A stretch of DNA of 54,953 nt from an uncultured Candidatus Saccharibacteria bacterium (lineage in GTDB: Bacteria > Patescibacteriota > Minisyncoccia > Phycocordibacterales > UBA6899). The number at the start of each line of letters is the position of its first letter. Positions within the stretch are counted from its first letter, which is position 1. The translations under genes were made by a program, and so were the position numbers. Positions 2-35,699 of this stretch are shown here, one piece after another. The notes beneath the pieces were generated by a model. The model saw only the letters and a list, made by a program, of their open reading frames with translations, ran no database searches and was not told the origin of the DNA. The stretch covers positions 3,247 through 58,199 of the forward strand of contig CAZUMX010000002.1 of NCBI GenBank assembly GCA_964622275.1. The letters are read 5' to 3'.

Positions 2-3000
2 ACCGGCACTCCATACCCCCGTCTCACGGTCTGGGGCGCAGATACCTCAGCGAATACTCGCGCCTTCGATGTGGTGAATAATGCATCCACGACACTCTTT
101 GCTATCTTCAACAACGGCCAAGCATCATCCACGAACCTCATCGTCTCCAATACCGCCACCACGACAAACCTCGTCGTCACTGGCAGTGCCACCACCTCAT
201 TCACTGGCCCTATCTCAGTCTCCGCCACCAGCTCCTTCAACGGCCTCCGTCTCTCTGGTGGATGTCTCCAAGACTCTACCGGAGCCTGTGTGGGTCGTGG
301 ACAAGGTGCGACCTACGTCGTTGCTGCGTCTTCCTCTATCTATCGCAACTACGCAGACTACGTCGCCACTGGTACCAACGACCAAAACGTCATCAACCAA
401 GCCATCACCGCTGCATACTCTGCATCCCGTGGTGCAGGAGGGAAGGTGTATCTCTTGGAGGGCATGTTCATGATTTCCACTTCTACCACCATCGGTGAAG
501 GTATCCGCATGGCCACCGGTACGCAACTCATCGGGTCGGGACCTGGGACTATACTCCGTGTTCCAAATGCAACACGAGGAAATATCAATGTCGTTGATAT
601 CCGTGCGTCACGCGCGCAGGTCACCGACCTCGCAATTCACGGAAACAAAACAAACCAGACAACAGGTACGCACATTGGTGTGCTCATTAGTGGTACTCTC
701 TCTGCTTCTTCGACAGTTGATCGTTTGCATATTCGCAGTATGCGATCAAACGGTATCGATCTCGCGTCGACCAATCGTGTCACGGTGACGAACAACTCGA
801 TCGAAGATTCATCCACGGCGTCGGGGTACGGCATTGGACTCACATCCGCGACGTACAACACCTTCATTGGAAATGCGATTGATGGCGGGTCGACCGGGGT
901 GACGGACGGGTTCTCGTTGAGTGGGACTTCCAATAACAACGTATTCACAGGGAACATCGTGACGAATGCCGCTGGAGGATGGGTTTCTTCCGGATCGGAT
1001 GCTAACACCATCACAGGAAACACCTTTAATGGAAACAACTACGGTGTCTATCTCAATCCAGGTAACAGCACTATTGTTTCTGACAATATCATGAGTGGTA
1101 ATGCTATTTCTGGTGTGATGATCAATTCCGGTGTGATGAATACGATTTCTAATAACCGAATCATCAACAACGGAAGCTCAGGGGCAAATAGCAGCATCGA
1201 TCTTTTGACAGGAGCATCAGGGAACCTTATTTCTGGAAACTTTATTACTGACGATGCTGGTACTGCATATGCCATCCGTATCTCTAGTGACTCATTGTCA
1301 AACGTCCTTACGGGAAATCTCTATGGAGGTACAGGTGCAACGTCTATCCAAGACGCTGCTACCAGCTCCACCAAGTACACCCAGTGGGATCGCATCACGC
1401 TCGACACCACCTCAAGTGGTATCCAGAGCTACTCACTCTTTGGCGCCGTCGGCTCCACATCAGTCGCTCTCGCCTCCACCACACAGCTTGGAACAGGCAA
1501 AGTCTTGAGCTTGAACGGCACCTCCAGTGAGTTCTTCACCGTCGCCAACCAAGGGAACGTCGGTATTGGCACCAGTACTCCATACTCCAAACTCTCTGTC
1601 GCAGGACAAGTGGTCGCACAGAACTTCGTTGCCACGTCCTCTACGGCATCCTCCACCTTCTTCGGTCTCTTTGCTACGAACGCCTCCACCACAGATCTCA
1701 CGGTCACAGACGCATTCTTCCAGAATGGTCTTGCGGACTGTACAGGTACCACCTTTGTCCAATACACACTCTCGTCAGGGAAGTTTGGGTGTGGGACTCC
1801 GGTGGGAGGAGGCGGTGGAGGTGGAGGTGCATTCGCAACTAATACATCCAACACCCTCACGTATCTCTCAACTCAGTGGGCGCTCAAGATTGGTGGCACA
1901 GCAACCATTACCAACTCTCGTCTTGAGGTCTCAGGTGGTGTGACCATCTTCGACACGGCAACAACATCAAACATCGTCTCTACCTCTACTGCTACAAGTT
2001 CCTTTGCTGGCAATCTCTCGGTCACTGGTGCAACTTCAACGTTTGCTGGCCTCCGCCTCTCCGGCGGTTGTCTCCAAGACTCTACCGGAGCCTGTGTGGG
2101 TCGTGGACAAGGAGCCACCTACGTCGTTGCTGCTACGTCGTCTATCTACCGCAACTACGCAGACTATGTTGCTACAGGTACCAACGACCAAAACGTCATC
2201 AACAATGCGATCACTGCTGCATACTCTGCTGCCCGTGGTGCAGGAGGGAAGGTGTATCTCCTCGAAGGTACTTACATGATCGCGACCTCGACCACAACAT
2301 TTGATCCAGCATACGGTATCGGTGTTCGTATGGCCACCGGGACACAACTGATCGGCTCTGGTCCTGGCACTGTGCTACGCCTTATTCCGAACATCAATAA
2401 TAATGCATTAGGCGGATTCGACATCATCAGCGCCTCGGGTACTCCAGCGGTCTACATCGGTCACCTCTCTGTCAATGGCGACAAGGCGAACCAGTCGTTA
2501 AATGATTATGAAAATGGTATCAATTTCACCGCAGTATCTTCCTCAACTATCGAAAACGTGATTGTCAACAATGTGAGAGGTACTGGTATTGTCCTTTATT
2601 ATGGTTCCACGAATAATATCATTACCGGCAATATTGCAAATAGCAATGGTTCCGGTATCGATCTCGTCGCATCCTCGACGAATAACATTGTTATTGGCAA
2701 CACCGCAAGCTTCAATACCTTTAATGGTATTAGTGTCTTGTCTGCAAGCAACAATATCATCACTGGAAACACTGCAAATTCAAATGCTTCCTATGGAATC
2801 AATTTTGCCTTCGAATCGCACTTCAATACCATCACAGGCAATACTACAAATAATAATGATTACGGTATTGATGTGAACGGTTCCTCTAACTTCAACAACA
2901 TCACAGGCAATATTGCGAACCTCAATACCTTTAACGGAATCAGTCTAGGTTTTTCTGAGGGGAATACTGTTACGGGAAATACCGTAAACACAAACGGCTT

Positions 3001-6000
3001 TTACGGTATTTCACTTTACACAGTTACTTCCCATGTCGTTACTGGAAATCGTCTCCACAATAACGGTGGATCCACCGCTCTCGGAGGGATCAGAGTCACA
3101 GATACTTCTCTCAATAATCTCATTTCTTCCAATTACATTACAGACACTGACGGAACAGGGTACGCAATTATGATCAGCTCCGATTCTGTGGGGAACACTC
3201 TCGTCGGCAATACCTACAGCGGCACCGGAGCCACAAGCATCGGTGACTTCGCCACTGGCACCACCCGTTACACCCAGTGGGACCGCATCACGCTCGACAC
3301 TACCTCAAGTGGTATCCAGAGCTACTCACTCTTTGGCGCCGTCGGCTCCACCTCAGTCGCAATGGCAAGTACGACTCAAGCAGGAACGGGGAAGGTCTTT
3401 AGCTTGAACGGCACCTCCAGTGAGTTCTTCACCGTCGCCAACCAAGGCAACGTCGGTATTGGCACCAGTACCCCATACTCCAAACTCTCTGTCGCAGGAC
3501 AAGTGGTCGCACAGAACTTCGTTGCCACGTCCTCTACGGCATCCTCCACCTTCTTTGGTCTCTTTGCTACGAACGCCTCCACCACAGACCTCACGGTCAC
3601 AGACGCCTTCTTCCAGAATGGACTCACAGATTGCACTGGTTCAGGAAATAAGGTGGTGTACACCCTCTCCTCAGGAAAGTTTGGCTGTGATACCGACCAG
3701 ACTGGAGGCGGATCACTCAACACTGGCTCACTCACTATTGGTGTTCTCACTGCAACCACAAGCTTCACAGCAAACGTTGCAACCATCGGCTCCACGAGCG
3801 TCGGATTCATCATGGCGACGAACACTGCAGCCACAAGCACCTTCACGAGCGCACTCTTTGCACTCAATGGTGGTAGTCTCGTCGGATTTGGCACGACTAC
3901 TCCAACAGGATTTGTGAGTATTCAGGCAAAAGTCGCAGGGAGCGAGATCTTCGATATTGCCTCTACCACCGGAGCATCGCTCCTGCGTGTGAATGGTGTT
4001 GGGAACGTAGGTATCGGCACCACAAGTCCATATGCAAAACTCTCTGTTGTTGGAACCACCACCTTCTCGGGAGGAGACCTCATCTTCAACAACGACATCG
4101 GCCGTATTACTCGTGCGATTGTGAACGCACCGAATTACTCAGGCACAAACAAAAATACTGGCGGCTTCCTCTTTGCCACGACGACATTGATGAATGGTGG
4201 TCAAGTTCCGCTACTTTACATGACATCTGCAACCTCAGGCATCATGGATTTCGCTCGAGTAGGGATTGGTGCGACGTCGACTTATGGACTCGTAGGGAAT
4301 CCCGGTAGTGATGAAGGTGGGCTTCGAGACACACTTACTGTTGCGGGTCGCATCTATAGCACTTGGAAGTATCTAGGATGTGATGCATTCGGAAGTGGTA
4401 TCGCAGCGGCTGTCACAGCAGCAACTGACTTGACGAATACCTGTGGAACGTTTGCTTACGATGCGACGACCCAAGGACGACTCGATCCACAAACGGATGC
4501 AAATCCTCCATTTGCGCGTATTACTGCTGGGACACAGACAGGTGGTGTGTCTGGACATTCTGCCACACTCCGATCGTGGGTAAAGTTTGTGTCAGCGACA
4601 ACAAGTGCGGCAATGGAGGCAACCATGAGACTCGGTACATCAACGGCGACGGTAGGTACTTCGACCGGAATAATCTACCTTGCGGGATTTGTGAACACTA
4701 CAGCAGGGTCAGCATTTACTGCTCTCCCTACGAACGGAGTCTTCTTTGCAGCATCTAGTACTGGGAACTGGATTGCAATCAGTCGTGATGGAGGCGTCAG
4801 TACAAATTCATGGACTGATACTGGTGTTGCCACAACTACAACAAATAATGACTTTAAAAAATTCAGAATCGAAATGAGTTCCACAACTAGTGGTGGCGGA
4901 GAAACAATATTCATGATCAATGGGACAATCGTTGCCCGTCACTACAGCAATGTTCCTTCAGACAATCTTGCTCCACTTATTGGAATCACGACAAATGCGA
5001 ACTTCGGACAAAATGGGCGATTCCTCGATATTTCTGGATTTAGAGTCTGGGTAGATGATCCTCCTGAAGGCTATGCACTCGCAGAATCAACAAAAGCTGA
5101 AATTCTTGCTGAAGAGGAATTAGATTATGGTCGGGCGGCAAACTTTGCCTTGTGGTACAAAGGACTAGAAGGATCAACAACACCGCGCACGGGTTCAATC
5201 CTTGCGCTGAGAGAATCTCAGATTGCTGGCTTGCCTAGGGTGGCAATGGCTGCACGAGAGTACGACGCTAACATCGTTGGTGTGTACACTGATAGCCCAA
5301 CACAAATCCTTGGTGATGTGCAAAAAGAAAAAATCCCTGTCGCTTATTCCGGTCGTTCGATCGTTGAAATCAATCTTCAAAACGGCCCTATCAGAGTCGG
5401 TGACCCAATTACCTCATCGTCGATTCCAGGTGAAGGAATGCGTGCCACACGGCCTGGACAGATCGTGGGCTATGCGGTCACGGCATTCGACCCAGATAAT
5501 GCTATTGGCGTATGTAAGGACATCACACTCGAAAACGGGGCACTCGCATCATCGACTCCAGCAGACGAAGAGAAGTGCGCAGGAACAGTCGTGGTATCAG
5601 TGAACCCACAAAGCTGGAATGGAGGAGAAGCATTCTTTGGTTCAGCAGGAGAAAACCTCGCATCAGTAGCCGCCGCAATCACAGATCTCAGCTCAGATGT
5701 GCTGACCGAAGCGGTCCGTGGTGCGAAGATCGTCGCAGGACGCATCGTCGCTGCTGTTGCGGTGGTTCAAGATCTCTTTGCGAAGGCTGTCACGATTCTT
5801 CCTGGTGGTGAGGTTGTCCTCCCGGCAGGAACGAACGAGCTCACTGGCCGAAGCTATATTGCAAGTGGTGAAACATCAGTCTTCATCCCACACAATCGCG
5901 TCTGGGCCACATCGACCAAAGTCCTCATCACTCCTCGAGTCTCCCTCACTGCAGCACTCGCTGTCACTGATATCGAAAGCGGTTCTGGATTCAGGGTCTC

Positions 6001-6346
6001 CCTCGGCGGAGCAGCACCAAGTGACATTCCGTTTGACTGGGTGATTGTGAACTCCTACGAAGTCGCTCCGGGATCGAATGCCGTACAGGGGCAAACTCAA
6101 GCAAACAACGGACAGGGCAGCCAAGGCGCAACACCCCCTCCACCTCCACCAACAACACCGGAGGGGGGAGCGAGCACGGGCGGTACCGGGTCAACGACAG
6201 GAACAGATACGGGAACCACATCAGGCTCAACGGGTGATACTGGAGCGGGTACAGGGACCACTCCTCCTGCTGACCAGGGAGCAACACCCCCAGCAGAACC
6301 TCCACCCTCTGAGCCTCCTCCTAGCGACACGCCACCCACTCCATAA
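2..6346 (+). CDS. Giant secreted/surface protein, 5' end outside the window (at least ~2,114 aa). It has tail-fibre-like GIGTxxPxxKLxV stalk motifs, two right-handed parallel beta-helix (PbH1/NosD-like) blocks, a jelly-roll-like region and a Pro/Thr-rich C-terminal tail.
   Basis: The frame is open from nt 2, with no stop upstream of the GTG at 71 used by the ORF track. Nt 2-70 encode TGTPYPRLTVWG, which resembles the internal GTSTPYSKLSVAG motif. Beta-helix rungs of the type ITGNxxxxNxxxGIxL recur at aa ~230-420 and ~800-1010. The C-terminus is PPPPPPTTPEGG...PPSEPPPSDTPPTP. Confidence 0.8.
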   Translation, partial: TGTPYPRLTVWGADTSANTRAFDVVNNASTTLFAIFNNGQASSTNLIVSNTATTTNLVVTGSATTSFTGPISVSATSSFNGLRLSGGCLQDSTGACVGRGQGATYVVAASSSIYRNYADYVATGTNDQNVINQAITAAYSASRGAGGKVYLLEGMFMISTSTTIGEGIRMATGTQLIGSGPGTILRVPNATRGNINVVDIRASRAQVTDLAIHGNKTNQTTGTHIGVLISGTLSASSTVDRLHIRSMRSNGIDLASTNRVTVTNNSIEDSSTASGYGIGLTSATYNTFIGNAIDGGSTGVTDGFSLSGTSNNNVFTGNIVTNAAGGWVSSGSDANTITGNTFNGNNYGVYLNPGNSTIVSDNIMSGNAISGVMINSGVMNTISNNRIINNGSSGANSSIDLLTGASGNLISGNFITDDAGTAYAIRISSDSLSNVLTGNLYGGTGATSIQDAATSSTKYTQWDRITLDTTSSGIQSYSLFGAVGSTSVALASTTQLGTGKVLSLNGTSSEFFTVANQGNVGIGTSTPYSKLSVAGQVVAQNFVATSSTASSTFFGLFATNASTTDLTVTDAFFQNGLADCTGTTFVQYTLSSGKFGCGTPVGGGGGGGGAFATNTSNTLTYLSTQWALKIGGTATITNSRLEVSGGVTIFDTATTSNIVSTSTATSSFAGNLSVTGATSTFAGLRLSGGCLQDSTGACVGRGQGATYVVAATSSIYRNYADYVATGTNDQNVINNAITAAYSAARGAGGKVYLLEGTYMIATSTTTFDPAYGIGVRMATGTQLIGSGPGTVLRLIPNINNNALGGFDIISASGTPAVYIGHLSVNGDKANQSLNDYENGINFTAVSSSTIENVIVNNVRGTGIVLYYGSTNNIITGNIANSNGSGIDLVASSTNNIVIGNTASFNTFNGISVLSASNNIITGNTANSNASYGINFAFESHFNTITGNTTNNNDYGIDVNGSSNFNNITGNIANLNTFNGISLGFSEGNTVTGNTVNTNGFYGISLYTVTSHVVTGNRLHNNGGSTALGGIRVTDTSLNNLISSNYITDTDGTGYAIMISSDSVGNTLVGNTYSGTGATSIGDFATGTTRYTQWDRITLDTTSSGIQSYSLFGAVGSTSVAMASTTQAGTGKVFSLNGTSSEFFTVANQGNVGIGTSTPYSKLSVAGQVVAQNFVATSSTASSTFFGLFATNASTTDLTVTDAFFQNGLTDCTGSGNKVVYTLSSGKFGCDTDQTGGGSLNTGSLTIGVLTATTSFTANVATIGSTSVGFIMATNTAATSTFTSALFALNGGSLVGFGTTTPTGFVSIQAKVAGSEIFDIASTTGASLLRVNGVGNVGIGTTSPYAKLSVVGTTTFSGGDLIFNNDIGRITRAIVNAPNYSGTNKNTGGFLFATTTLMNGGQVPLLYMTSATSGIMDFARVGIGATSTYGLVGNPGSDEGGLRDTLTVAGRIYSTWKYLGCDAFGSGIAAAVTAATDLTNTCGTFAYDATTQGRLDPQTDANPPFARITAGTQTGGVSGHSATLRSWVKFVSATTSAAMEATMRLGTSTATVGTSTGIIYLAGFVNTTAGSAFTALPTNGVFFAASSTGNWIAISRDGGVSTNSWTDTGVATTTTNNDFKKFRIEMSSTTSGGGETIFMINGTIVARHYSNVPSDNLAPLIGITTNANFGQNGRFLDISGFRVWVDDPPEGYALAESTKAEILAEEELDYGRAANFALWYKGLEGSTTPRTGSILALRESQIAGLPRVAMAAREYDANIVGVYTDSPTQILGDVQKEKIPVAYSGRSIVEINLQNGPIRVGDPITSSSIPGEGMRATRPGQIVGYAVTAFDPDNAIGVCKDITLENGALASSTPADEEKCAGTVVVSVNPQSWNGGEAFFGSAGENLASVAAAITDLSSDVLTEAVRGAKIVAGRIVAAVAVVQDLFAKAVTILPGGEVVLPAGTNELTGRSYIASGETSVFIPHNRVWATSTKVLITPRVSLTAALAVTDIESGSGFRVSLGGAAPSDIPFDWVIVNSYEVAPGSNAVQGQTQANNGQGSQGATPPPPPPTTPEGGASTGGTGSTTGTDTGTTSGSTGDTGAGTGTTPPADQGATPPAEPPPSEPPPSDTPPTP
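242..3638 (+). repeat. Intragenic tandem duplication (two ~1.8-1.9 kb units) inside the giant gene
   Basis: Nt 242-470 are nearly identical to 2048-2276 (LRLSGGCLQDSTGACVGRGQGATYVVAA...GKVYLLEG). Nt 1376-1745 are nearly identical to 3269-3638 (YTQWDRITLDTTSSGIQSYSLFGAVGSTSV...TVTDAFFQNGL). The beta-helix cores between these stretches have diverged. Confidence 0.85.
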
Positions 6347-6362
6347 TCCCAATGAATAAAAT

Positions 6363-6409
6363 CCAAAAGGCTAAGCCTTTACAAACTCTGTAAAGGCTTA
6401 GCCTTTTGG
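6363..6409. repeat. REP-like palindromic element, copy 1 (21-bp perfect stem, 5-nt loop)
   Basis: CCAAAAGGCTAAGCCTTTACA-aactc-TGTAAAGGCTTAGCCTTTTGG, starting 17 nt after the stop of the giant gene. No U-tract follows. Confidence 0.85.
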
Positions 6410-6485
6410 GTTTGGATAAGAGCTGCTTTTTCAACAATGTAGTATGATAAATAGACAGCATTATTCCTAAAAATATTTCATTCAC

Positions 6486-7169
6486 ATGATTTCAAAATCA
6501 CAAAAAACATTTCTTGGTCTAGGAGTCGGAGTTCTTCTGCTGACTGTGGGTGGGTATACACTCGCACAAACCAGCGCAACACAAGTCAGTGCATGTGCAA
6601 AGAACAATGGCTCAATGTATCTCATTGGTCCAAGTTTCTCTCGACAAACCTGTCTTTCGGGTGATGTCCAAATTGACTGGCCTACACTTGCAGGAACACC
6701 AAAGCAATTGCATTTATATGATGGAAATAATATAGATTTAGGCTGGATTGTTTCAGCGAGTGGGCAGGGCTCACCTTCTAATGCGTTTACAGTCTATGTT
6801 CCATCTCAAGGTCTCTTCGTAGACTATGGATTGGATGGATTGAATGTCTCAGCAAATATTGGCGGCGGATCAGGTACAGTGTATTTTAATGGGCCCAATT
6901 GCGTCGGCACCCCCCTTCTCAATGCATCCAATCAGGGAGCAGGCAACTATTCTTCTCCAAACACTTTATTTGGTTTTGACGGGTATTTATACAAAAAAAA
7001 TATTTCTGTGACTACAACCACCACGGTATTTTCAGCTCGTGTGGGTGGATCATGTCAGAATCTAGAAAATCCTGAAGAAATTGAAGCTCTTTCTCTTGTG
7101 GTGTACCCAACTCCCCCCATTGTCCTTAATCCTGTTTGGCCAATTCGGGTAGTCGAAACTCAGTTTTAG
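6486..7169 (+). CDS. Secreted hypothetical protein (signal peptide/N-terminal anchor, four Cys)
   Basis: 227-aa ORF. The N-terminus KTFLGLGVGVLLLTVGGYTLAQT looks like a signal peptide. I recognise no family. REP-like hairpins lie on both sides. Confidence 0.6.
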   Translation: MISKSQKTFLGLGVGVLLLTVGGYTLAQTSATQVSACAKNNGSMYLIGPSFSRQTCLSGDVQIDWPTLAGTPKQLHLYDGNNIDLGWIVSASGQGSPSNAFTVYVPSQGLFVDYGLDGLNVSANIGGGSGTVYFNGPNCVGTPLLNASNQGAGNYSSPNTLFGFDGYLYKKNISVTTTTTVFSARVGGSCQNLENPEEIEALSLVVYPTPPIVLNPVWPIRVVETQF

Positions 7170-7211
7170 GTATCCAACACGGAGTTTCTCTGAAATCAGA
7201 AAAGAACAAAT

Positions 7212-7257
7212 CCAAAAGGCTAAGCCTTTGTACATTTGCAAAGGCTTAGCCTTTTGG
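7212..7257. repeat. REP-like palindromic element, copy 2 (19-bp stem, variant loop)
   Basis: CCAAAAGGCTAAGCCTTTG-tacatttg-CAAAGGCTTAGCCTTTTGG, ending 14 nt upstream of the RAYT start codon. Confidence 0.8.
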
Positions 7258-7270
7258 CTAGGATTTATGA

Positions 7271-7978
7271 ATGTCACGGAAAATCACTTTTTCAGAAGGA
7301 GAGTATTACCATATCTACAATAGGGGAGTAGAAAGGCGTGAAATTTTTCTCGATGCACAAGATCAGGAGCGATTTATTTCTTTGCTCTATCTATGCAACA
7401 TGGCAAGTGTGGTAAATGTACAAGAAATGAGACGTGACGAAGTAACTCTCTCCAATATTTTCTTAAAAAATAACATTGAGGTTATTCCTTCGCCTCTTGT
7501 GGCAATCGGAGCATACTGTCTCATGCCTAATCATTTTCATATTCTCTTTAAAGAAGTCCAAGAAGGTGGCATCTCGCGATTCATGCATAAATTTCTTACT
7601 GCATACTCAATGTATTTTAACGCCAAGTATAAAAGAACAGGTCGACTTTTTGAGGGGCCATTCAAAGCACAGCACGCCGATAGTGATAAGTATTTAAAAT
7701 ACTTACATGCTTACATCCACCTAAATCCCATGAAGCTCTTTGATACTACTTGGAAAACTCGAACATCGCCTTGGTCAAAAGATGCCGAGGACTTTCTCCG
7801 TGCATACACAAGCTCCAGTTATTCTGATTATGCAGAAGGGGGGCGTCCGCAAGGGAAGATCCTGAACAAAAAAGTATTTCCAGGATATTTTTCGACGAAG
7901 AAAGATTTCAAGCAGTTTACGCATGAATGGCTTGTTATCAAGAATGAGTTTCCCAATTTTAAGAATCCAAAAGGCTAA
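7271..7978 (+). CDS. REP-associated tyrosine transposase-like protein (RAYT; IS200/IS605-type Y1 HUH nuclease fold)
   Basis: Family hallmarks are all present: YHIYNRGVERREIF N-terminal motif, HUH motif in CLMPNHFHILF, RTGRLFEGPFKA, and the catalytic-Tyr helix LHAYIHLNPMK followed by SSSYSDY. The last four codons and the stop lie inside REP copy 3. Confidence 0.8.
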   Translation: MSRKITFSEGEYYHIYNRGVERREIFLDAQDQERFISLLYLCNMASVVNVQEMRRDEVTLSNIFLKNNIEVIPSPLVAIGAYCLMPNHFHILFKEVQEGGISRFMHKFLTAYSMYFNAKYKRTGRLFEGPFKAQHADSDKYLKYLHAYIHLNPMKLFDTTWKTRTSPWSKDAEDFLRAYTSSSYSDYAEGGRPQGKILNKKVFPGYFSTKKDFKQFTHEWLVIKNEFPNFKNPKG

Positions 7979-8013
7979 GCCTTTACAAACTCTGTAAAGG
8001 CTTAACCTTTTGG
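7967..8013. repeat. REP-like palindromic element, copy 3 (one mismatch in a 21-bp stem)
   Basis: CCAAAAGGCTAAGCCTTTACA-aactc-TGTAAAGGCTTAACCTTTTGG. The loop and polarity match copy 1, and it overlaps the RAYT 3' end. Confidence 0.85.
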
Positions 8014-8068
8014 ATTGGAATGGGGAAAGAGAGAAAGAATTCTAAGGACGGGGTGGTAAAATCAGAAG

Positions 8069-8992
8069 GTGAGCAAAGACCAGATACAATCCCCATATGT
8101 TGTTGTCCTCGGAGGCAATAGGGTACGAAAGAAGCCCTCTACCCCTCCGCCAGATGCATCACCGACGCACCAAGGCGACCCATTGAAGCCTGAAGCAAAA
8201 GTCTTCGGAGTTTTGCAGCCTGACCATGCGCCAAAATCCATGAAGACCATGACTGCGGATCTTCATACCGTAGAAGAACACGCAAAGCTTAGTGATAGCG
8301 GTGAGCAGAAAAAAAAGAAAAGTTTTGGATGGAAGTTCTTTGCAGAAAAGACAAAAACGCAATCTACCACTCTTGACCAAAGCGTAACATCGGTTAAAAC
8401 CCACAAAGGAAGAACACACTGGTGGTCCTTTGCGAAGAAAGCCGCACTGCAGTTTCAAAACATAGATGCAGTAAAACCTATCACACCGAATACTCCACCC
8501 ATGCGTGAGATGCCGCCACAAGTTGTGCGTGCAAAAGTCATTGAGGTTCCTTCAGAGCAAGATCATGAAAAGACAAGCCCATATCGCAGTCGCTTCATGC
8601 GGCAGATCGGAAAGAAGTGGTACCTTGGGTCAAAGCTCGCCATCGAACTTCCGCTCCATGCAAAAATCGGCGCAGGAATCGCTGTGCTCGCACTTCTTGT
8701 GGTCCCACCTCTGGTCTCACGACTGTCGCCAAGCACTCCTCCAAAGACAGCTGGAGCGATTGTCGCAATAGGGACAGAAGCCTTGGTGGCCCAAGTGGGG
8801 AAGTCCATAGCGCTTCCTGAGGGCGAGACTCCGCTTGTTGCTGTCGCAACAGCAGACGATGTGCGTCGACTGAATGTGACTGACGCAAAGCCAGGAAATA
8901 AAATTCTCCTCTATCAAAAAGCGGGGAAGATTGTTGTGTATGATGCTGAGACAGACAAAGTTCTTGGCGTCGTGAACCGCGCACAGCCGTAA
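8069..8992 (+). CDS. Hypothetical Lys-rich protein with one predicted TM helix
   Basis: 307-aa ORF with a GTG start in the track; the start is uncertain. It has one hydrophobic segment, IGAGIAVLALLVVPPLV. The stop lies 3 nt before the ATPase start. Confidence 0.45.
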   Translation: MSKDQIQSPYVVVLGGNRVRKKPSTPPPDASPTHQGDPLKPEAKVFGVLQPDHAPKSMKTMTADLHTVEEHAKLSDSGEQKKKKSFGWKFFAEKTKTQSTTLDQSVTSVKTHKGRTHWWSFAKKAALQFQNIDAVKPITPNTPPMREMPPQVVRAKVIEVPSEQDHEKTSPYRSRFMRQIGKKWYLGSKLAIELPLHAKIGAGIAVLALLVVPPLVSRLSPSTPPKTAGAIVAIGTEALVAQVGKSIALPEGETPLVAVATADDVRRLNVTDAKPGNKILLYQKAGKIVVYDAETDKVLGVVNRAQP

Positions 8993-8995
8993 TAT

Positions 8996-11491
8996 ATGAG
9001 CATTGGTTATCAAGATGTTGCACAAAAAAGTCTCGCAGAGCTATACACCATATATTCCTCAAAGAGAGAAGGATTATCACCAGATGATGTCATCAATCGA
9101 CTAAAGCGCCTTCCAAAAGAACACAAGAATATTATCCCAATATGGCTCCCCATTCTCTTGCGTCAGTTTCGATCTGCGTTCGTGTACTTACTCATTGGTG
9201 CTGCTGGAATCTCCGTATTTCTCGGTGAATATGTTGATGCTGGGCTCATCCTCCTGTTTCTTTTTTTGAATACTGCGTTAGGATTTTTCCAAGAGTTTCG
9301 TGCAGAACGAGCACTGGGTTCGCTTAACACATTGTTGGTTCGCAAAACGACCGTACGAAGAGAGAACAAGCTTATACAGATTGTCACCCCAGAAGTTGTT
9401 TCTGGTGATATTGTTGTCCTTTCTGCTGGAGACATGATTCCCGCTGATGGACGATTTATTCGCGCAGAACATGTCCTTATTGATGAGTCTCCATTAACTG
9501 GAGAGAGTGCTCCGGTTTCAAAACACACCGAAAGTCTCAAAGAAGCTCCACAAGGGTATGATGAGGCAGGAAATATTGGATTTGCTCGCACGACACTGGT
9601 AGAGGGTGATGCGGAACTGCTTGTCACAAGCACTGGAAGAGATACCGCAGTGGGAGAGGTTGTATCTGAGATAGATAACACACGACGGGGGAGCGCTTTT
9701 GAGGAAGGGATGAACAAGCTGTCACTCTCTATCCTGCGTATGGTCGTCATGATGATTCCAATCCTCTTTGTGCTTAATCTGATTGTTCACAAAAGCGATT
9801 TTCGCATTCCTGAATTTCTCGTCTTTGTCATTGCCCTTACTATTAGCGCCATACCTGAGGCGCTCCCACTCGTCACAACGCTCGCACTGTCTCGTGGTGC
9901 GCTTGCTCTGTCTAAAAAATCCGTCATTCCAAGACGCCTCTCTGCAGTCGAAGATCTTGGGAGTGTTCAGGTCCTTTGCACAGATAAGACTGGAACGATT
10001 ACCGAAAATCGGCTTACCATTAAAGCTATCTATGGTGAAGAAGACCAAGTTATTGAGGCGCTCTTGTGGGATCCACGTACAACTGAAGCTGAAGGGCAAC
10101 TGAATGTCTTTGATCGCGCCATTCTTGAAAAAGGGGAACGCCACACTCTTTCCTCAACAGTCCAGAGAATAGATGAACTTCCGTTTGACCCTGATCGTCG
10201 GCGTGAGAGTGTCCTCCTTGAGGATAAAGACAAAGCATTTCTTGTCATTCGTGGTGGTCCAGAATATCTCAAAGCACGAGGGGTTGATGACCGCGCACTC
10301 GAATGGGCAAAAGAAAAAGGGAAGGAAGGATGCCGCATCCTTGCTGTGGGCATAAAGGAGGTTCCTGTGGGCCAAAAAGAGATCTCGGCAGAGTTAGAAG
10401 AAGGTGCTCGTTTTGTTGGTATGGCTGCGTTTTTTGACCCGCTGAAACCTTCAACAAGGAAAGCTGTAGAGCACGCAAAAGAATTGGGAGTCCGGGTCAA
10501 GATTATTACAGGGGATAGTCGTGAAGTTGCAGGATGGGTGGGGTATGAAGCGGGGATTATCGCCCATTCAGAGAAAGTGTTGACGGGGCAAGAGTTTCTC
10601 GCATTGTCAGAGGGGGAGCGACGGAAAGCTGTACTCGAATATGATGTCTTTGCACGCACAGCCCCGATAGAAAAAAAAGAAATTCTTTCGTACCTGAAAG
10701 AGCAGTTTATCGTAGGATTTCTCGGTGAGGGATTTAATGACGCTCCTGCACTCAAGTTGGCGCATGTGGGGCTCGTTGTCGAAAATGCGTCTGATATTGC
10801 TCGTGACACCGCAGATGTAGTCCTCATGAACAAATCTCTCGATGTTATCGTCGATGGCGTGCGTGAAGGGAGAGTGATCTTTGCAAACACGATGAAATAT
10901 ATTCGTGCGACACTCACATCAAACTTCGGGAATTTTTACGCACTTGCTTTTTCGACGCTGTTTGTCCCGTACCTTCCCATGCTTCCTATTCAGATTCTTC
11001 TCCTCAATCTCCTCTCTGATTTTCCAATGATCACCATTGCGACTGATACCGTTGATACTGAAGAGGTCCGTAAGCCAAAGCAGTACGAATTACGGGAGCT
11101 TATGAGACTCGCACTCCTTCTCGGGGTTATTTCGACGGTATTTGATTTTCTCTTTTTCTTCGTGTTTCGGGGCTATGGAGAGTCATACCTTCAGACGCTC
11201 TGGTTTATGGGGAGTATCCTTACTGAGCTCATTCTACTTTTTTCGATCCGTACAATGCGTCCGTTTTGGAAGGCATCTCGCCCACACGTGATTGTTACCG
11301 GGTTTACAGGCGTTGTGGCTCTTGTGACTGTCTTGTTGCCATTCACACATGTTGGGCAAAAGATCTTCCATTTTGTTCCCCCAGGCCCTCATCTTTTCGG
11401 TTTAATGATCGGGATCGTTCTCTGCTACTTTCTTGTTACTGAAGCAGGGAAGCTCCTCATCATACGATTTTCACCGCCCAAGCATTCATAA
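8996..11491 (+). CDS. Cation-transporting P-type ATPase (MgtA/Ca2+-ATPase-like)
   Basis: The motifs are LTGESAPV (TGES), CTDKTGTITENRL (DKTGT phosphorylation site), ITGDSREVA (TGD) and GEGFNDAPALKLAHVG (GDGxND variant). Multiple TM helices are present. Confidence 0.9.
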   Translation: MSIGYQDVAQKSLAELYTIYSSKREGLSPDDVINRLKRLPKEHKNIIPIWLPILLRQFRSAFVYLLIGAAGISVFLGEYVDAGLILLFLFLNTALGFFQEFRAERALGSLNTLLVRKTTVRRENKLIQIVTPEVVSGDIVVLSAGDMIPADGRFIRAEHVLIDESPLTGESAPVSKHTESLKEAPQGYDEAGNIGFARTTLVEGDAELLVTSTGRDTAVGEVVSEIDNTRRGSAFEEGMNKLSLSILRMVVMMIPILFVLNLIVHKSDFRIPEFLVFVIALTISAIPEALPLVTTLALSRGALALSKKSVIPRRLSAVEDLGSVQVLCTDKTGTITENRLTIKAIYGEEDQVIEALLWDPRTTEAEGQLNVFDRAILEKGERHTLSSTVQRIDELPFDPDRRRESVLLEDKDKAFLVIRGGPEYLKARGVDDRALEWAKEKGKEGCRILAVGIKEVPVGQKEISAELEEGARFVGMAAFFDPLKPSTRKAVEHAKELGVRVKIITGDSREVAGWVGYEAGIIAHSEKVLTGQEFLALSEGERRKAVLEYDVFARTAPIEKKEILSYLKEQFIVGFLGEGFNDAPALKLAHVGLVVENASDIARDTADVVLMNKSLDVIVDGVREGRVIFANTMKYIRATLTSNFGNFYALAFSTLFVPYLPMLPIQILLLNLLSDFPMITIATDTVDTEEVRKPKQYELRELMRLALLLGVISTVFDFLFFFVFRGYGESYLQTLWFMGSILTELILLFSIRTMRPFWKASRPHVIVTGFTGVVALVTVLLPFTHVGQKIFHFVPPGPHLFGLMIGIVLCYFLVTEAGKLLIIRFSPPKHS

Positions 11492-11504: not shown

Positions 11505-12344
11505 TCATTGACCTAAGCCTCGTCTTGGATCATGGGCAGACTTTGTGTTAAGGGATGAAGAAATGTCTCTAGGAATCTTTATTGCCCGTAATGTAAGAAA
11601 GAGTGGGAATTCCTTGCGAGCGGTGTTTTCAGCCTTCGCCCGAGTCCCAACGCTTGTTCGATGGCTTGTCCACTCCTCAACTCGGTCAATAAGAAGACCT
11701 TGTTTGGTAAGGTGCTTCACATACCATTGGAGAGGCCGATGGAACGAAATTGTTGTTGGAGAGTTGGCTACACCTGGATGCATGGCAATTTCTTCTTGTG
11801 ATTCTGAGAGATACGCATCGATTCTTCTATATTGTATGTGTCTGTCGGTGTCATATTGCCAGGAACTGCGTTTGGGAATACGAAAGGCAGGATGATTGAG
11901 TACCATAGTAAACATCCCCCCTGTCTTCAGGACGCGAGCAACTTCTGAAAAGACTGAATCTGCACGAGCAATGTTTTGAATCGCAAGGGAAATAAGAACA
12001 TGGTCAATTGTCTGATCTTTTATGAAGTCGAGCTCGTCTGCGGGAGAAACAACAAAGGTGGCTTTCGGCACTCGGGTTTTTGCTTTAGCAATGAGCTCTG
12101 GTGATATATCAACCCCTATTACCTGAGCTTTGTTGCTCAAATGTTCAGCAAAAAACCCTTGACCACAAGCCAAATCAAGAATATGCATTTCTGCCTTCGG
12201 TTCAATAAGACGAATGAGGTTGGGAAGAAGAACTTTGCTGTGGTATGTATCTGGCCCCGAGAGGTGCTCGTTATACCATTCGTGTACTGGACCCCACGAG
12301 GTCTGTGTGTCCTTATGTTTTGGGTGTTTCTCCCTCTTGTTCAT
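11505..12344 (-). CDS. Class I SAM-dependent methyltransferase
   Basis: Motif I is ILDLACGQGFF. I prefer the start at M32 of the track ORF (MNKREK, nt 12344), because the longer version overlaps the divergent neighbour. Confidence 0.7.
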   Translation of the reverse strand: MNKREKHPKHKDTQTSWGPVHEWYNEHLSGPDTYHSKVLLPNLIRLIEPKAEMHILDLACGQGFFAEHLSNKAQVIGVDISPELIAKAKTRVPKATFVVSPADELDFIKDQTIDHVLISLAIQNIARADSVFSEVARVLKTGGMFTMVLNHPAFRIPKRSSWQYDTDRHIQYRRIDAYLSESQEEIAMHPGVANSPTTISFHRPLQWYVKHLTKQGLLIDRVEEWTSHRTSVGTRAKAENTARKEFPLFLTLRAIKIPRDISSSLNTKSAHDPRRGLGQ

Positions 12345-12405
12345 ATGTAATGGCATTGTACAATATATATGGCTTTTTGCCCCACTCTTCATATCTTTAG
12401 ACGAC

Positions 12406-13395
12406 ATGGATGTCTCGTTACAGAAAAAAATTGGCATAGCTTTTTTATTGATCCTCGGAATGACCGGAGTATGGTGGTGGGGAGTGTATTCAGAGCGAAA
12501 CTCAGAATTATCTCATCACCAGTTTACTCAATGTCATCGAACCTACAACCTACTAGATAAGTCTCTTGATTGTGAACGTGTTGATGATGTTGCTACGCAA
12601 ATCTCTGGCCTTGAACAGCATGTCTCAGAGATTATTGAGAAAAAGAAAAAAGAAAAATTGGTCAGTAGGGTAGGTGTTTTTTACCGTGACCTTACTACTC
12701 GGCGGTGGTTTGGGATTAACGCTGACGCAGAATTCTATCCTGCCAGCCTTGCGAAGCTTCCGCTCGGCATCACATACTTTAAGGTTGCTGATCTTGAACC
12801 TCAAGTCCTTGATCAAGTTCTTCCACTTACGATACAAAAAGAATACACAAACGAAGGTCAAAAAGTCAGCGTGGACAGCCCAATGGTTCCAGGACAGAGT
12901 TATTCCGTTCGTCGCATGATAGAAGACTTACTCGAATACTCTGATAATCGACCCATCGGACCACTCCTTAGTTTTATGCGCCAAGATGTGTGGAAGAAGG
13001 TGTATGCGGACTTTGGTATTCGTAAACAAAAAGATAATGGGGAAGAAGAATGGTCGGTGACACCTCGAGTGATCTCAAACGTCCTACGTTCACTCTATAA
13101 CGGATCGTATTTGGATTTAGGATCATCCCAAGAACTCCTTGAGATCATGACCCGGGCACGGTATTCGCGAGGAATTGTCGCAGGGGTAGACCACGATGTT
13201 CTTGTTGCGCATAAGTTTGGTGAAGCGACCATGGTGGAGGCAGATGGTTCGTATACCCCAACCCTCCATGACTGTGGGATTGTCTATAAGCCTGATGCGC
13301 CGTATATCCTTTGCGTTATGACGGAAGGAAAAGACTTTGCTCAACTTGAGTTCGCTATTGCTGAAATATCCAAAGTGGTGTTTGATGCCCAGTAA
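12406..13395 (+). CDS. Class A beta-lactamase-like serine hydrolase with N-terminal membrane anchor
   Basis: The three active-site motifs are SxxK (ASLAK), SDN (EYSDNRP) and a KTG variant (HKFGE). I moved the start to MDVSLQKK (nt 12406), which precedes the TM segment IGIAFLLILGMTGVWWW. Confidence 0.65.
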   Translation: MDVSLQKKIGIAFLLILGMTGVWWWGVYSERNSELSHHQFTQCHRTYNLLDKSLDCERVDDVATQISGLEQHVSEIIEKKKKEKLVSRVGVFYRDLTTRRWFGINADAEFYPASLAKLPLGITYFKVADLEPQVLDQVLPLTIQKEYTNEGQKVSVDSPMVPGQSYSVRRMIEDLLEYSDNRPIGPLLSFMRQDVWKKVYADFGIRKQKDNGEEEWSVTPRVISNVLRSLYNGSYLDLGSSQELLEIMTRARYSRGIVAGVDHDVLVAHKFGEATMVEADGSYTPTLHDCGIVYKPDAPYILCVMTEGKDFAQLEFAIAEISKVVFDAQ

Positions 13396-13462: not shown

Positions 13463-15277
13463 ATGGAGATCCGAAACATCGCGATTATTGCTCATGTCGA
13501 CCACGGCAAGACGACATTAACTGACGCTATTATGCGTCAAACTGGGGCATTTCAAGAGGGGATGAGTATGGACCAAAATACACTCGAAAAGGAACGAGGC
13601 ATTACTATCTATGCAAAAAATTCCTCTATTCAGTACAAAGGGACCAAAATCAATATCGTGGACACCCCAGGGCACGCTGACTTTGGAAGTGAGGTCGAAC
13701 GCGTGCTTCGCTCCATCGATAATGTGCTCCTGATCGTCGATGCTCAGGAGGGGCCGATGCCACAGACACGGTTTGTCCTCAAAAAAGCTCTGGAGATTGG
13801 AATGAAGCCAATTGTTGTCCTCAACAAGATCGATAAACCCGCAGCAGACCCTCATCGCGCGGAGCATGAAGTTCTTGATCTGTTTATAGAGCTTGGCGCA
13901 AATGAAGAGCAGTGTGAGTTCACCACCGTGTACGCCATTGGACGTGAGGGGGTCGCAAAACGAAAGCTCGAGGATGAAAGCAAGGACATCACCCCGCTTC
14001 TCGACGTCATTCTCGAGAAGGTCCCTCCAGCACCACATGACGCAGACGCACCGCTCCGCGCACAGCCATTTAACCTTGCGTACGATAACTTTTTGGGTCG
14101 TATGGCTATTTGTCGTGTATACGAAGGCAAAGTGTCACAAGGCCAAACACTCTGGGTAAAAAAACAGAATGGATCGAAATCCCAAGCAAAAATTACCAAA
14201 GCATTTACCTTTGAAGGTATTTCTCGCAAAGAAACACAAAGCGCAGAAGCAGGAGACATCGTTATGCTTGCTGGGATGCCTGATATCTATATCGGAGATA
14301 CAATTTCGAGCACTGAGGATGGAGAACTCCTTCCGGCGATTCATGTTGACGAGCCCACTATTGTTCTTGATTTTCTTGTGAACAATTCTCCGTTTGCGGG
14401 GAAAGAAGGAAAGCTCGTGACGAGTCGACAGATCAGAGAACGTCTCGAAAGAGAGCTTGAGGTGAACGTTGGACTTCATGTTGATCTTGAATCAAGTGCG
14501 GGAGATCGTTTTCGTGTCTCTGGGCGAGGGGAGCTTCATATCGCCATTCTCCTTGAGAGCATGCGACGTGAGGGATATGAAGTTCAGGTGTCACAGCCTC
14601 ATGTCATCATCAAGGAAATTGACGGTGTAAAACATGAGCCATTTGAGGAGGTCACTATTGATGTAAAACCCGAATATCAGGGAGCAGTGATTCAGCGTCT
14701 CGGTGAGCGCGCTTGTATTATGTCCAATATGATCACCCACGAAGGGTCTGTGCGTGTTATTTTTGAAGGACCAACACGAGGCCTCCTTGGATACCGTGGA
14801 CAGTTTATTATTGATACAAAGGGAGAGGGGATCTTTGCCTCCCGAGTCATTGGATTTAAGCCTTACGCTGGTGAAATCGCAAAACGAGCCACAGGATCAA
14901 TGATCTCCATGGAGACCGGGAAAGCACTGGCTTTTGCTCTTTGGAACCTCCAGGAACGCGGTGAGCTTTATATTGGGCCAACGACCGAGGTCTATGAGGG
15001 TATGGTGGTCGGAAATACTTCGAAGGGGGACGAAATGGTTGTCAATCCTTGTAAGGCGAAAGCACTCTCAAACGTCCGAGCATCAGGGAGCGATGAAGCC
15101 ATTGTCCTTATTCCACATCATCCAATTACGATTGAATCAGGACTTGAAATCATGGAAGATGACGAATATTTGGAGATCACTCCAAAGTCTGTCCGCCTTC
15201 GAAAAAAATACCTATCTCAAAGTGATCGTGATAAGGCCAAGCGCACCACCGTCAAGGCCGGTGATAAACCTCTCTAG
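13463..15277 (+). CDS. typA: Translational GTPase TypA/BipA
   Basis: The N-terminus [17 protein letters not shown] (G1) with DTPGHADF (G3) and NKID (G4), together with the 604-aa length, is typical of BipA. Confidence 0.93.
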
Positions 15278-15352
15278 GTTTCTTAAACACACTCCATCCT
15301 TGTTGTTGTGGAGCTTCAATATTTTCTCACAGTATAAGCATACGCCAATGAT

Positions 15353-16069
15353 ATGAGGCTTGATAAATATCTCGTTGAACAAAAATTTTTTTCTTCCCGT
15401 GCTCGAGCCAAAGAGGCAATTGAACGAGGAGATATTCTGGTGAATGGGGTCCCTCATATGAATCCTGATTTTGATGTTCATGATGGAATTCATGTGGAAG
15501 CTCAAAGTGCATTTCCTTGGGTTTCTCGTGGAGCATTAAAGCTTATCGCCGCACTGGATGCATTTGGTGTCGATCCCGCTGGTCTCAGTGTTCTGGACCT
15601 CGGTGCGTCCACGGGGGGATTTACAGAGGTTTTGCTTTCACGCGGGGCAGCAAAAGTCTATGCAGTAGATGTTGGCCACGAACAGCTCCACTCACGTCTG
15701 CGTGGCGATCCGCGTGTTGTCTGCATGGAAGGAACTGATGTGCGACAACTTGTGCCAAATCATTTTCCTCTGCAGTTTCAACTTATTGTTGGAGACCTTT
15801 CGTTTATCTCTCTCACAAAAGTTCTCCCAACAATTCATACGCTTATGTCTCAAGGCGGGTCTGCTCTTTTGCTGGTTAAACCACAATTTGAAGTGGGTGT
15901 TGGAGGAACAAAAAAGGGCATTGTGAAAGATGAAAACAAGAGAAAAGAGGTATTACATAGGATTGAGAGAGATGCTACCCAGCTCGGGTTTGTGTTTCTT
16001 GAAGGTATAGAATCTCCAGTCCAAGGGGGGAGTGGAAACGTCGAATACCTCATTCATCTCCGGGCATAA
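15353..16069 (+). CDS. tlyA: TlyA-family rRNA 2'-O-methyltransferase (S4 + FtsJ-like domains)
   Basis: It has the MRLDKYLV...SRARAKEAIERGDILVNG S4 motif and the LDLGASTGGFTEVLL SAM-binding motif. Confidence 0.85.
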   Translation: MRLDKYLVEQKFFSSRARAKEAIERGDILVNGVPHMNPDFDVHDGIHVEAQSAFPWVSRGALKLIAALDAFGVDPAGLSVLDLGASTGGFTEVLLSRGAAKVYAVDVGHEQLHSRLRGDPRVVCMEGTDVRQLVPNHFPLQFQLIVGDLSFISLTKVLPTIHTLMSQGGSALLLVKPQFEVGVGGTKKGIVKDENKRKEVLHRIERDATQLGFVFLEGIESPVQGGSGNVEYLIHLRA

Positions 16070-16109
16070 TCTTCTCACGTTTTTATGCTGATCGTGGTAG
16101 ACTAGTTCC

Positions 16110-35340: not shown

Positions 35341-35684
35341 TCATGCGCATTCTTTCAAGTATTCTGGTGGCATCTGCTCCATTTGTGGCGTGGGCGCAAA
35401 ATTACGATGGACCACGACTTGGAAATCCTGTCGCTCGCATTATGCAGCCAGGGAATCTCATTGATCTCTTGATCACGATTATCCAATTCCTTGGTGGCCC
35501 CATTGTTGTCCTTGGAATTATTTATGCCGGATACAACCTCGTGACTGCTCAGGGAGAAGAGCGCAAGCTCGACACAGGGAAGAGGGCGCTCCTTTGGGTG
35601 ATTGTGGGGGCGGCGATCATTCTTGGAGCGACGATTATCAAGAATATTGTCGGCAATACGTTTACAGACATTTTTGGCGCTTAA
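35337..35684 (+). CDS. T4SS-pilin-family protein, paralog 3 (subfamily A)
   Basis: The start ATG overlaps the paralog 2 stop (ATGA). The signal peptide ends FVAWA|QN, with motif YAGYNLVTAQGEE. Confidence 0.65.
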   Translation: MIMRILSSILVASAPFVAWAQNYDGPRLGNPVARIMQPGNLIDLLITIIQFLGGPIVVLGIIYAGYNLVTAQGEERKLDTGKRALLWVIVGAAIILGATIIKNIVGNTFTDIFGA

Positions 35685-35699
35685 CGATATACTGTATTT

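Follow-up and report, generated by a model that had tools for sequence, protein, structure and literature searches.

The stretch of DNA studied here, 54,953 bases from an uncultured Candidatus Saccharibacteria bacterium (the window), carries three long hairpins of closely related sequence around a gene for a protein of the Y1 HUH (histidine-hydrophobic residue-histidine) kind. This locus raises the question of whether the hairpins and the gene belong together, as repetitive extragenic palindromes (REPs) belong to the REP-associated tyrosine transposases (RAYTs). Our analysis suggests that they probably do. We read the locus as a module similar to the REPtrons and to the TIRtrons (named for their terminal inverted repeats, TIRs), in which cognate hairpins accompany a class-2 Y1 HUH enzyme of the RAYT or TIRYT (TIR-associated tyrosine transposase) type that is encoded in the chromosome and inherited vertically. 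Comparison across the enzyme's family, and not local coincidence alone, supports the hairpins as putative cognate elements of the enzyme, because palindromes specific to each genome stand at both ends of the Y1 gene in all 12 of the family loci compared.

Hairpins and Y1 protein of the window

The 18-mer CCAAAAGGCTAAGCCTTT and its complement make up six arms in the window, and these pair into three hairpins at 6363-6409, 7212-7257 and 7967-8013. Three 47-nucleotide (nt) hairpins had been described here in the initial annotation, which was made from the sequence alone, and they were borne out; a repeat finder extended their stems to 25, 19-21 and 24 base pairs (bp), with calls at 6359-6413 (25 nt, 96%), 7212-7257 (19 nt, 100%) and 7964-8016 (24 nt, 96%). 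Only 0.02 matches to the 18-mer are expected by chance in the window, and no further copy was found outside the three hairpins in its 54,953 bases. They are also the three longest inverted repeats of the window, and each of its other strong hairpins has a unique sequence. Folded as single-stranded DNA (ssDNA), the three hairpins gave -22 to -26 kcal/mol on both strands, with z-scores of -7 to -10.7 against shuffled sequences. Copies 1 and 3 share 98% identity across 50 nt as well as the loop AACTC, and both are preceded at equal offset by the 5' flank TCCCAAT. Copy 2 is 88% identical and the differences at the top of its stem are compensatory, which agrees with the earlier description of a stem top that had changed yet still paired.

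The polarity of all three hairpins is the same, an A being present in the left arm (GGCTAAGCC) and a T in the right. The claim that they share one orientation, unlike the classical inverted arrangement, is literally true. However, a single arm already forms a small palindrome, AAAGGC-TAA-GCCTTT. Each 47-nt hairpin is therefore an inverted doublet of two units, and the contrast with the classical arrangement is correspondingly weaker. The unit in this genome reads AAAGGCT-N-AGCCTTT.

Every hairpin lies at the 3' end of a plus-strand open reading frame (ORF); these ORFs encode proteins of 2,091 amino acids (aa; 71-6346), 227 aa (6486-7169) and 235 aa (7271-7978), the last being the Y1 protein. 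The flank of copy 1 begins directly after the stop codon of the giant 2,091-aa gene. Copy 2 ends 13 nt ahead of the Y1 start codon, and AGGA at 7260-7263 is likely the ribosome-binding site of the Y1 gene. Copy 3 overlaps the 3' end of the Y1 gene, and its left arm contains the TAA with which that gene stops (7976-7978). It had been proposed that copy 3 supplies the last four codons and the stop of this gene. The stop codon is indeed within the repeat; the codons plausibly derived from it number nine (FPNFKNPKG) and not four, because the TCCCAAT flank is common to copies 1 and 3 and because homologues align only to residue 226 of 235. The length of the C-terminal tail varies across the family alignment.

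The Y1 protein contains the motifs NHFHIL, AYIHLNP, LFEG and SS. Its sole reported Pfam domain is Y1_Tnp, which was passed with 35.7 bits (cut-off 23). An AlphaFold model was built from 36 family members (predicted local distance difference test score, pLDDT, 84.9) and submitted to a fold search with Foldseek. The best match was E. coli TnpA_REP with its REP hairpin (4ER8; E 2.5e-4), the sole PDB match at E <= 0.001, and the IS608, ISDra2 and IS200 insertion sequence (IS) transposases came next. Residues H88, H90, Y148 and S182-S183 are invariant in an alignment of the 36 members. The 75-residue C-terminal domain is helical in the model and has no named match; no C-terminal helix-turn-helix (HTH) domain (Bac_DnaA_C, HTH_23, HTH_28) was detected by Pfam. 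These observations support a class-2 (Y...NP) Y1 HUH enzyme of the RAYT kind, in keeping with the initial annotation, which had recognized a RAYT-type HUH/Y1 protein. Among the published TnpA-Y1 subclasses, 2.1 is the closest, as judged from motifs and length in the family alignment, which were compared by eye with Table 1 of PMC6006769, without the authors' hidden Markov models, and not as a formal assignment. Subclass 2.1 is characterized by NH[YF]H, FQ/W[EQ], Y[IV]HLNP, an SS in the proximal tail and a median length of ~238 aa (Quentin et al. 2018, PMC6006769), and it equals RAYT Group 1 (Bertels et al. 2017) and the TIRYTs (Di Nocera et al. 2013). The 55-kb window contains this single Y1 gene and no second one.

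The search for copies beyond the locus covered public genome, metagenome and viral contigs. The 18-mer matched genome contigs 18 times, with ~17 matches expected by chance in 596 Gb; there were 28 matches in metagenome contigs and one in viral contigs. All were single-arm matches in unrelated taxa, and the partner arm was absent from the genome and metagenome matches inspected. Because these scans gave only single-arm matches, the hairpin sequence is, as judged from public DNA, private to its lineage. Rfam searches returned sub-threshold matches only, nearly all of them to microRNA-precursor families, which are artefacts of long hairpins.

Palindromes across the family

The Y1 protein belongs to a very large family. 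A word-indexed protein search gave at least 7,927 proteins at E <= 0.001, and the best 120 of these were 48-57% identical to the query, the named ones coming nearly all from metagenome-assembled genomes of Patescibacteria. A profile search gave at least 1,188 clusters (50% identity) at E <= 1e-30. Relatives on plasmids of cultured bacteria were 24-29% identical over most of the protein, and no relatives were found among viral contigs. We compared 12 loci, namely the window and 11 others from nine further genomes of the candidate phyla radiation (CPR): L047, L049, L051, L052, L054, L055, L058, the two paralogues of L059 (L059a and L059b), L060 and L061. They were picked by long contig alone, not by hairpin content, and hairpins were then scanned near the Y1 gene.

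The results showed that cognate palindromes flank the Y1 gene on both sides at every locus (12 of 12, or 11 of 11 besides the window). The palindromes are alike within a genome and unlike between genomes. The upstream one ends 2-42 nt ahead of the start codon, and the downstream one overlaps or closely trails the stop codon (examples in Table 1). Inverted two-unit doublets similar to those of the window were found at L055 and L061, the latter with the stop codon inside the hairpin too, and the upstream site of L051 is also an inverted doublet. At four of the 12 loci (L049, L051, L052 and L059b), a further copy lies inside the gene at nt +150 to +190, approximately codons 50-65, where it maps to a variable protein loop before strand beta2; the window gene has no such copy. 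The intragenic copies are read in different frames, as EGRTF in L052 and SRLNL in L059b, and therefore the conserved entity is the DNA element and not the peptide. Genome L059 contains two divergent Y1 paralogues (10001-10705 and 15166-15861), 4.5 kb apart with two tandem Wzy_C genes between them, which share 41% and 49% identity with the Y1 protein of the window. The palindromes form a separate family at each paralogue, CCCATAGGTG-T-CACCTATGGG in one and ATGTTCGAGGTT-G-AACCTCGAACAT in the other, and the intragenic copy of the second paralogue is a translated 45-nt perfect palindrome. Divergent paralogues that each have palindromes of their own are also known from genomes with several RAYTs.

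A control scan indicated that the cognate palindromes are essentially the sole repeated perfect palindromes at each locus. Across 213 kb there are 20 occurrences of the strict motif RRGGnn.nnCCYY, and 15 of them fall within Y1 genes +/-80 nt, or 4.8% of the DNA scanned. The remaining five comprise the extra copies in the window, L059a, L049 and L051 and one occurrence 336 nt upstream of the L060 gene. Extra copies in related loci are thus few and lie one gene or 4-6 kb off; in the window's other 53 kb there is none. Near-identical contig sets that came from different samples (L049/L050, L052/L053, L047/L048 and L055/56/57) had no presence/absence polymorphism of the hairpins, and therefore gave no direct sign of mobility. 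L051 also contains a ~100-nt repeated segment with an overlapping palindrome (ATTTATGATTACCTTATTCGCGCGA...) at 16400-16441 and 17649-17690; the first repeat adjoins two extra Y1-type hairpin copies, and at the second the hairpin is degenerate.

Table 1. Coordinates and make-up of repeats, genes and palindromes in the window and in related loci
Feature	Locus	Position	Strand	Description
Repeat copy 1	Window	6347-6419	+	5' flank TCCCAAT...AATCC; hairpin 6359-6413, 25-bp stem, loop AACTC; units centred at 6373 and 6399
227-aa ORF	Window	6486-7169	+	N-terminal hydrophobic segment; bracketed by copies 1 and 2
Repeat copy 2	Window	7212-7257	+	19-21-bp stem, loop TACATTTG; units centred at 7222 and 7247
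Y1 HUH protein gene, 235 aa	Window	7271-7978	+	H88, H90 (7532-7540); Y148 (7712-7714) in YIHLNP; S182-S183
Repeat copy 3	Window	7951-8022	+	Hairpin 7964-8016, stem of 24 bp (one mismatch), AACTC loop; unit centres 7977 and 8003
Block between hairpins 1 and 3	Window	6414-7963		GC 0.405
Palindrome	L054	Upstream and over stop codon		ATATCAAGGTT-C/G-AACCTTGATAT
Palindrome	L052	Upstream, intragenic and at stop codon		GTGAAGGTC-G-GACCTTCAC
Palindrome	L059b	Upstream, intragenic and downstream		ATGTTCGAGGTT-G-AACCTCGAACAT
Extra copies, one gene away	Window; L059a	Copy 1; 12943		
Extra copies, 4-6 kb away	L049; L051	15083-15127; 16453 and 16550		

The anatomy of the site was derived from 35 units aligned on their centres. 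The basic site is a 15-25-nt perfect palindrome in which three stem pairs (A-T, G-C and G-C, i.e., AGG...CCT) are nearly invariant across genomes, and the adjoining pairs vary yet remain complementary. Paired cells amounted to 86.9%, compared with 62.3% in shuffled alignments (none of 500 shuffles reached the observed value), a percentage that arises partly by construction, as the units were found by a palindrome search. The invariance of AGG/CCT and the position of the units relative to the gene are not by construction. Covariation scored 0.67, compared with 0.20 in shuffled and at most 0.18 in slid structures, and changes on both sides were seen in 9 of 11 stem pairs. The outer stem also has compensated differences between copies of one and the same genome, for example from ATTAAT...ATTAAT to ACCAAT...ATTGGT in L054. 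Such compensated changes indicate that the dyad symmetry is kept, either by selection or by copying that regenerates symmetry.

Two other readings of the site were tried and rejected. A Shine-Dalgarno/anti-Shine-Dalgarno reading of AGG/CCT does not fit, as the AGG comes no closer than 20 nt to the start codon, and there are 3' and intragenic copies as well. Integron attC sites are imperfect hairpins that have extrahelical bases and an R' GTTRRRY core, and a tyrosine-recombinase integrase is encoded close to them. The stems found here are perfect and without GTTRRRY, and no integrase was present among the neighbours scanned.

The gene neighbourhood of the Y1 gene also recurs. In L049, L051, L052, L054 and L061, ftsK (after recA and, where the locus extends to it, efp) lies on one strand and a gene for a large surface-type protein followed by the Y1 gene on the other. 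The genes rplJ-rplL follow further downstream in L051 and L052, and L055 has the rplJ-rplL side only. Six loci thus have this neighbourhood, either whole or in part; identity among their Y1 proteins is ~50-67%. The window has a partial pattern only, with the giant surface protein upstream of the Y1 gene, and the contexts of L047, L058 and L060 differ. As read from gene order, this recurrent neighbourhood argues for long vertical inheritance at a fixed place and against a hopping IS. Vertical inheritance at a fixed place has been described for RAYTs.

Favoured explanation and its alternatives

The window has three REPIN-like doublets (REPINs being inverted REP doublets): the first at the presumed promoter and ribosome-binding site of the Y1 gene, the second covering its stop codon and the third on the far side of the preceding gene. 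By analogy with the chemistry of TnpA_REP and of the IS608 TnpA, a dimer of the enzyme would bind the units extruded as hairpins on ssDNA, cut beside them by means of Tyr148 and a metal held by H88 and H90, and rejoin the strands, so that sites would be copied or homogenised locally; excision of segments between sites may also occur. Such an activity would account for the 98% identity of copies 1 and 3 and for the likeness of sites within a genome despite their divergence between genomes. It would likewise account for the repeat-replaced C-terminal tail of the Y1 protein and for copies in the nearest intergenic spaces. The upstream copy probably overlaps the Y1 promoter, since a -10-like hexamer (TATAAT or close) follows it in at least 8 of the 12 loci in sequences read by eye, which makes self-regulation of the Y1 gene through this site likely. 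The three sites probably also act as transcript-end hairpins for the co-directional genes. This role is plausible, yet a proper T-run was found on the minus strand only.

The closest structural counterpart is the REPtron of E. coli (TnpA_REP, the RAYT YafM, flanked by REP/BIME sequences; 4ER8; subclass 2.2). The two systems have in common a Y1 HUH enzyme with Y...NP, and a gene flanked by its own cognate hairpins that can overlap the gene ends. In both, the gene is single-copy and apparently vertically inherited, and the hairpin sequence is genome-specific. They differ in that the proteins are only 17% identical and the CPR protein has the helical C-terminal domain of 75 residues. Classical REPs consist of a GTAG/GTGG tag 5' of an imperfect GC-rich hairpin and are found in tens to hundreds of extragenic copies. 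E. coli has hundreds of REPs, in contrast to the three seen in the window, whose palindromes are perfect and have neither tag nor bulge. The paired units are closer to the REPINs of Pseudomonas (Bertels and Rainey 2011), in which two inverted short palindromic units and a short spacer also form one long hairpin. Those REPINs, however, occur in hundreds of copies with RAYTs of groups 2 and 3, and the units of the window are perfect palindromes.

The TIRYTs and TIRtrons of subclass 2.1 (Group 1) are similar to the present system in protein signature (NH[YF]H, FQ/FE, Y[IV]HLNP, SS tail, ~238 aa), in their ~1-2 divergent copies per genome and in having flanking repeats of low or moderate copy number, some of them self-complementary or 'double palindromic'. 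Self-complementarity of some TIRs was reported by Di Nocera et al. (2013). In contrast, published TIRs have GGGGWSAS and the sites of the window and its family have AGG/CCT in short perfect palindromes; also, the HTH-like C-terminal domain of the subclass (Bac_DnaA_C, HTH_23, HTH_28) was not detected in the CPR protein. Subclass 2.4 of Cyanobacteria and Bacteroidetes has a REP inside the tnpA_REP gene, which resembles the intragenic hairpin of four family loci. It differs in its YIxNNP motif and in having variable insertions between beta3 and alphaC, as opposed to before beta2 in the CPR loci. Lastly, IS200/IS605 elements such as IS608 and ISDra2 have the HUH/Y1 fold and direct-orientation hairpins at both gene ends on one strand, and in known members the left-end hairpin is close to the promoter and ribosome-binding site. 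They are unlike the present system in their Y...Q motif and ~150-aa core-only protein (compared with YIHLNP and 235 aa including a C-terminal domain), in their imperfect hairpins with defined cleavage tetranucleotides, in their many near-identical copies and in having no conserved chromosomal position.

Several points weigh against a REPtron- or TIRtron-like module. On the protein side, the Y1_Tnp profile was passed but the NCBIfam RAYT equivalog NF047646 was not reached (34.4 bits, cut-off 80), and a PDB sequence search with the Y1 protein gave no match. Binding and cleavage are here attributed to the enzyme by virtue of its family membership. On the DNA side, the three copies in 55 kb all lie within 1.65 kb, and no dispersed population was seen in the window; to this may be added the palindrome search behind the paired percentage given above. 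The initial annotation had described REP-like hairpins on either side of a RAYT-type gene. The cognate palindromes are present at 12 of 12 loci, but the GTAG/GTGG tag and the imperfect stem of classical REPs are absent: no tag was found at the sites, which have the 5' foot AATCC and perfect stems. For subclass 2.1, moreover, no REP-like structures were found by Quentin et al. (2018, PMC6006769).

Perfect palindromes could equally be double-stranded operators for a dimeric binder, and this leads to an alternative in which the Y1 protein or another dimeric regulator would control Y1 transcription without cleavage or mobility. The perfect dyad symmetry and invariant AGG/CCT core fit such operators, as do the few and local copies and the place of the upstream copy, 2-42 nt before the start and followed, in no fewer than 8 of the 12 loci, by a -10-like hexamer. 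Yet operators fail to explain the copies at stop codons, inside genes, one gene off and 4-6 kb off. They also leave aside the near-identity of sites within genomes amid divergence between genomes, which implies copying or conversion, and the family-wide invariance of the HUH and tyrosine catalytic residues, which indicates that catalysis is under selection; we therefore hold them to be unlikely. An autonomous IS200/IS605-type IS or small transposon, recent and mobile, with hairpins 2 and 3 as its ends, hairpin 1 as an extra end and the 227-aa gene as passenger, appears somewhat less likely still. Its hairpin-gene-hairpin layout with all elements in direct orientation is that of IS608 ends, GC content within the window is at its lowest between hairpins 1 and 3, the IS608 and ISDra2 TnpA have a related fold, and a hairpin overlaps the 3' end of the gene. 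Opposed to this are the class-2 Y...NP motif in place of the Y...Q of TnpA-IS200, the presence of only one Y1 gene in 55 kb, and TnpA_REP as best structural match. In addition, the neighbourhood recurs at least partly in six loci with Y1 proteins ~50-67% identical, and the sole two copies within one genome (L059) are 41-49% identical to the window protein and have different hairpins.

The CPR Y1 family could alternatively be a domesticated ssDNA recombinase and not a REP multiplier, with a few fixed sites at its own locus (promoter, surface-loop codons and stop). By cutting and rejoining DNA between these sites it would turn itself or its neighbours on and off, and it might take up or release single bracketed genes, similar to an integron but based on HUH chemistry. 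A layout fitting cassette exchange is seen in the low-GC 227-aa gene of the window and in the bracketed Wzy_C gene of L059, and giant surface-protein genes adjoin the Y1 locus in most loci; we regard this idea as improbable. Ordinary intrinsic terminators or mRNA-stabilising stem-loops, locally triplicated and functionally unconnected to the Y1 protein, are a very improbable explanation. Each copy is at the 3' end of a plus-strand gene and A- and T-runs flank the stems. However, a terminator pattern scan found the hairpins terminator-like on the minus strand only, opposite to the genes, and no T-tract follows the stem on the coding strand. The other strong hairpins of the window are unique sequences, cognate palindromes occur at 12 of 12 loci and also before the start codon and within genes, and several related loci have a separate canonical GC-rich terminator next to the cognate hairpin, on its upstream side. 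The TTTT inside the stem may nevertheless give the hairpins some role in termination. Based upon these observations, we favour the module of enzyme and cognate hairpins described above.

Flanking genes and wider significance

The 227-aa gene between copies 1 and 2 had been put forward as a cargo gene, a claim that did not hold up well. The protein matched no Pfam, NCBIfam or PADLOC family, had two homologues only among 5.8 billion proteins, and the gene list of the one homologue's contig that was looked up has no Y1 gene beside that homologue. PADLOC also reported no defence-system match. There is little support for cargo status, which would follow from bracketing and low GC only. The GC at third codon positions (GC3) of the gene, 0.32, is the lowest among the measured window genes, and the lowest-GC 1600-nt interval of the 55 kb starts at 6401 (0.404; mean 0.472, sd 0.027). 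L059a is similar in that one neighbouring gene (Wzy_C) is bracketed by hairpins.

In most family loci, the gene that immediately precedes Y1 encodes a large surface-type protein. In the window, the giant 2,091-aa ORF (71-6346) has an internal duplication of ~631 aa, in which the block GLRLSGGCLQDSTGACVGRGQGATYVVAA...KVYLLEG occurs twice, and a C-terminal tail rich in Pro, Thr and Gly. The minimum of the cumulative GC skew is located at or up to 1 kb upstream of the Y1 gene (6001-8000 in the window; ~9001-10000 in L049, L052 and L061). In the latter three loci, genes switch from the minus strand (recA, ftsK and, where reached, efp) to the plus strand a few kb upstream. The skew pattern could reflect only the C-rich coding strand of the large surface-protein gene, or else a replication-related switch.

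Other features of the window and related loci were recorded as well. A 356-aa ORF at 28278-29348 has a GC of 0.58 and a GC3 of 0.71, far above the other measured genes (mostly 0.32-0.59), and may have been horizontally acquired. The second lowest-GC stretch of the window (35400-36200, ~0.415) contains several small ORFs. Two ORFs on opposite strands, for a methyltransferase (11505-12437, minus) and a beta-lactamase-family protein (12214-13395, plus), overlap by ~220 nt, and one of their start codons was probably called too early. L058 has GC-rich palindrome pairs, GCGTGCC...GGCACGC and TCCCGCC...GGCGGGA, in inverted order at 45-132 and 1656-1745, 1.6 kb apart, which are unrelated to the Y1 hairpins. 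In L061, a gene with a REP_ORF2-G2P domain (rolling-circle replication initiator; 15720-16736) is found 5 kb past the Y1 gene on its downstream side and precedes an Mrr-type restriction gene; judging from this gene content, the region may be an integrated element. L047 has an ORF for a LAGLIDADG_1 homing endonuclease at 8561-9004 and no other called genes at 6115-8560; this stretch may be an rRNA intron. Introns in rRNA genes are common in CPR genomes.

Modules of this kind are already known as REPtrons and TIRtrons. What differs here is, first, the lineage, with a CPR-wide family that has only 17% identity to the E. coli enzyme and 24-29% to its plasmid-borne relatives. The site differs too: its palindromes are short and perfect, contain an AGG/CCT core, lack the GTAG tag and have so far been seen at a very low local copy number. 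A further difference is the recurrent intragenic copy, for which subclass 2.4 is the sole reported precedent, at a different position, and another is the combination of a subclass 2.1-type protein signature with cognate hairpins, though that subclass was reported to be REP-less. A full-text literature search combining RAYT terms with Patescibacteria or CPR gave no relevant description of such an association, and the text of Quentin et al. (2018, PMC6006769) does not mention Parcubacteria, Microgenomates, Patescibacteria or CPR.

In conclusion, the loci read here point to a very large enzyme family in minimal CPR genomes, whose cognate hairpins are few and occupy fixed positions in and around the enzyme's gene. 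To our knowledge, the host function of RAYT-type enzymes is still an open question, and hundreds of REP copies blur the picture in those systems that have been studied best. The association with cognate hairpins is hereby extended to subclass 2.1 (Group 1) and to a phylum-level radiation. With few sites, cleavage, excision and regulation assays would be simple, which makes this a compact and testable system, and the specificity of the enzyme for its site could be read from covariation across thousands of natural pairs.

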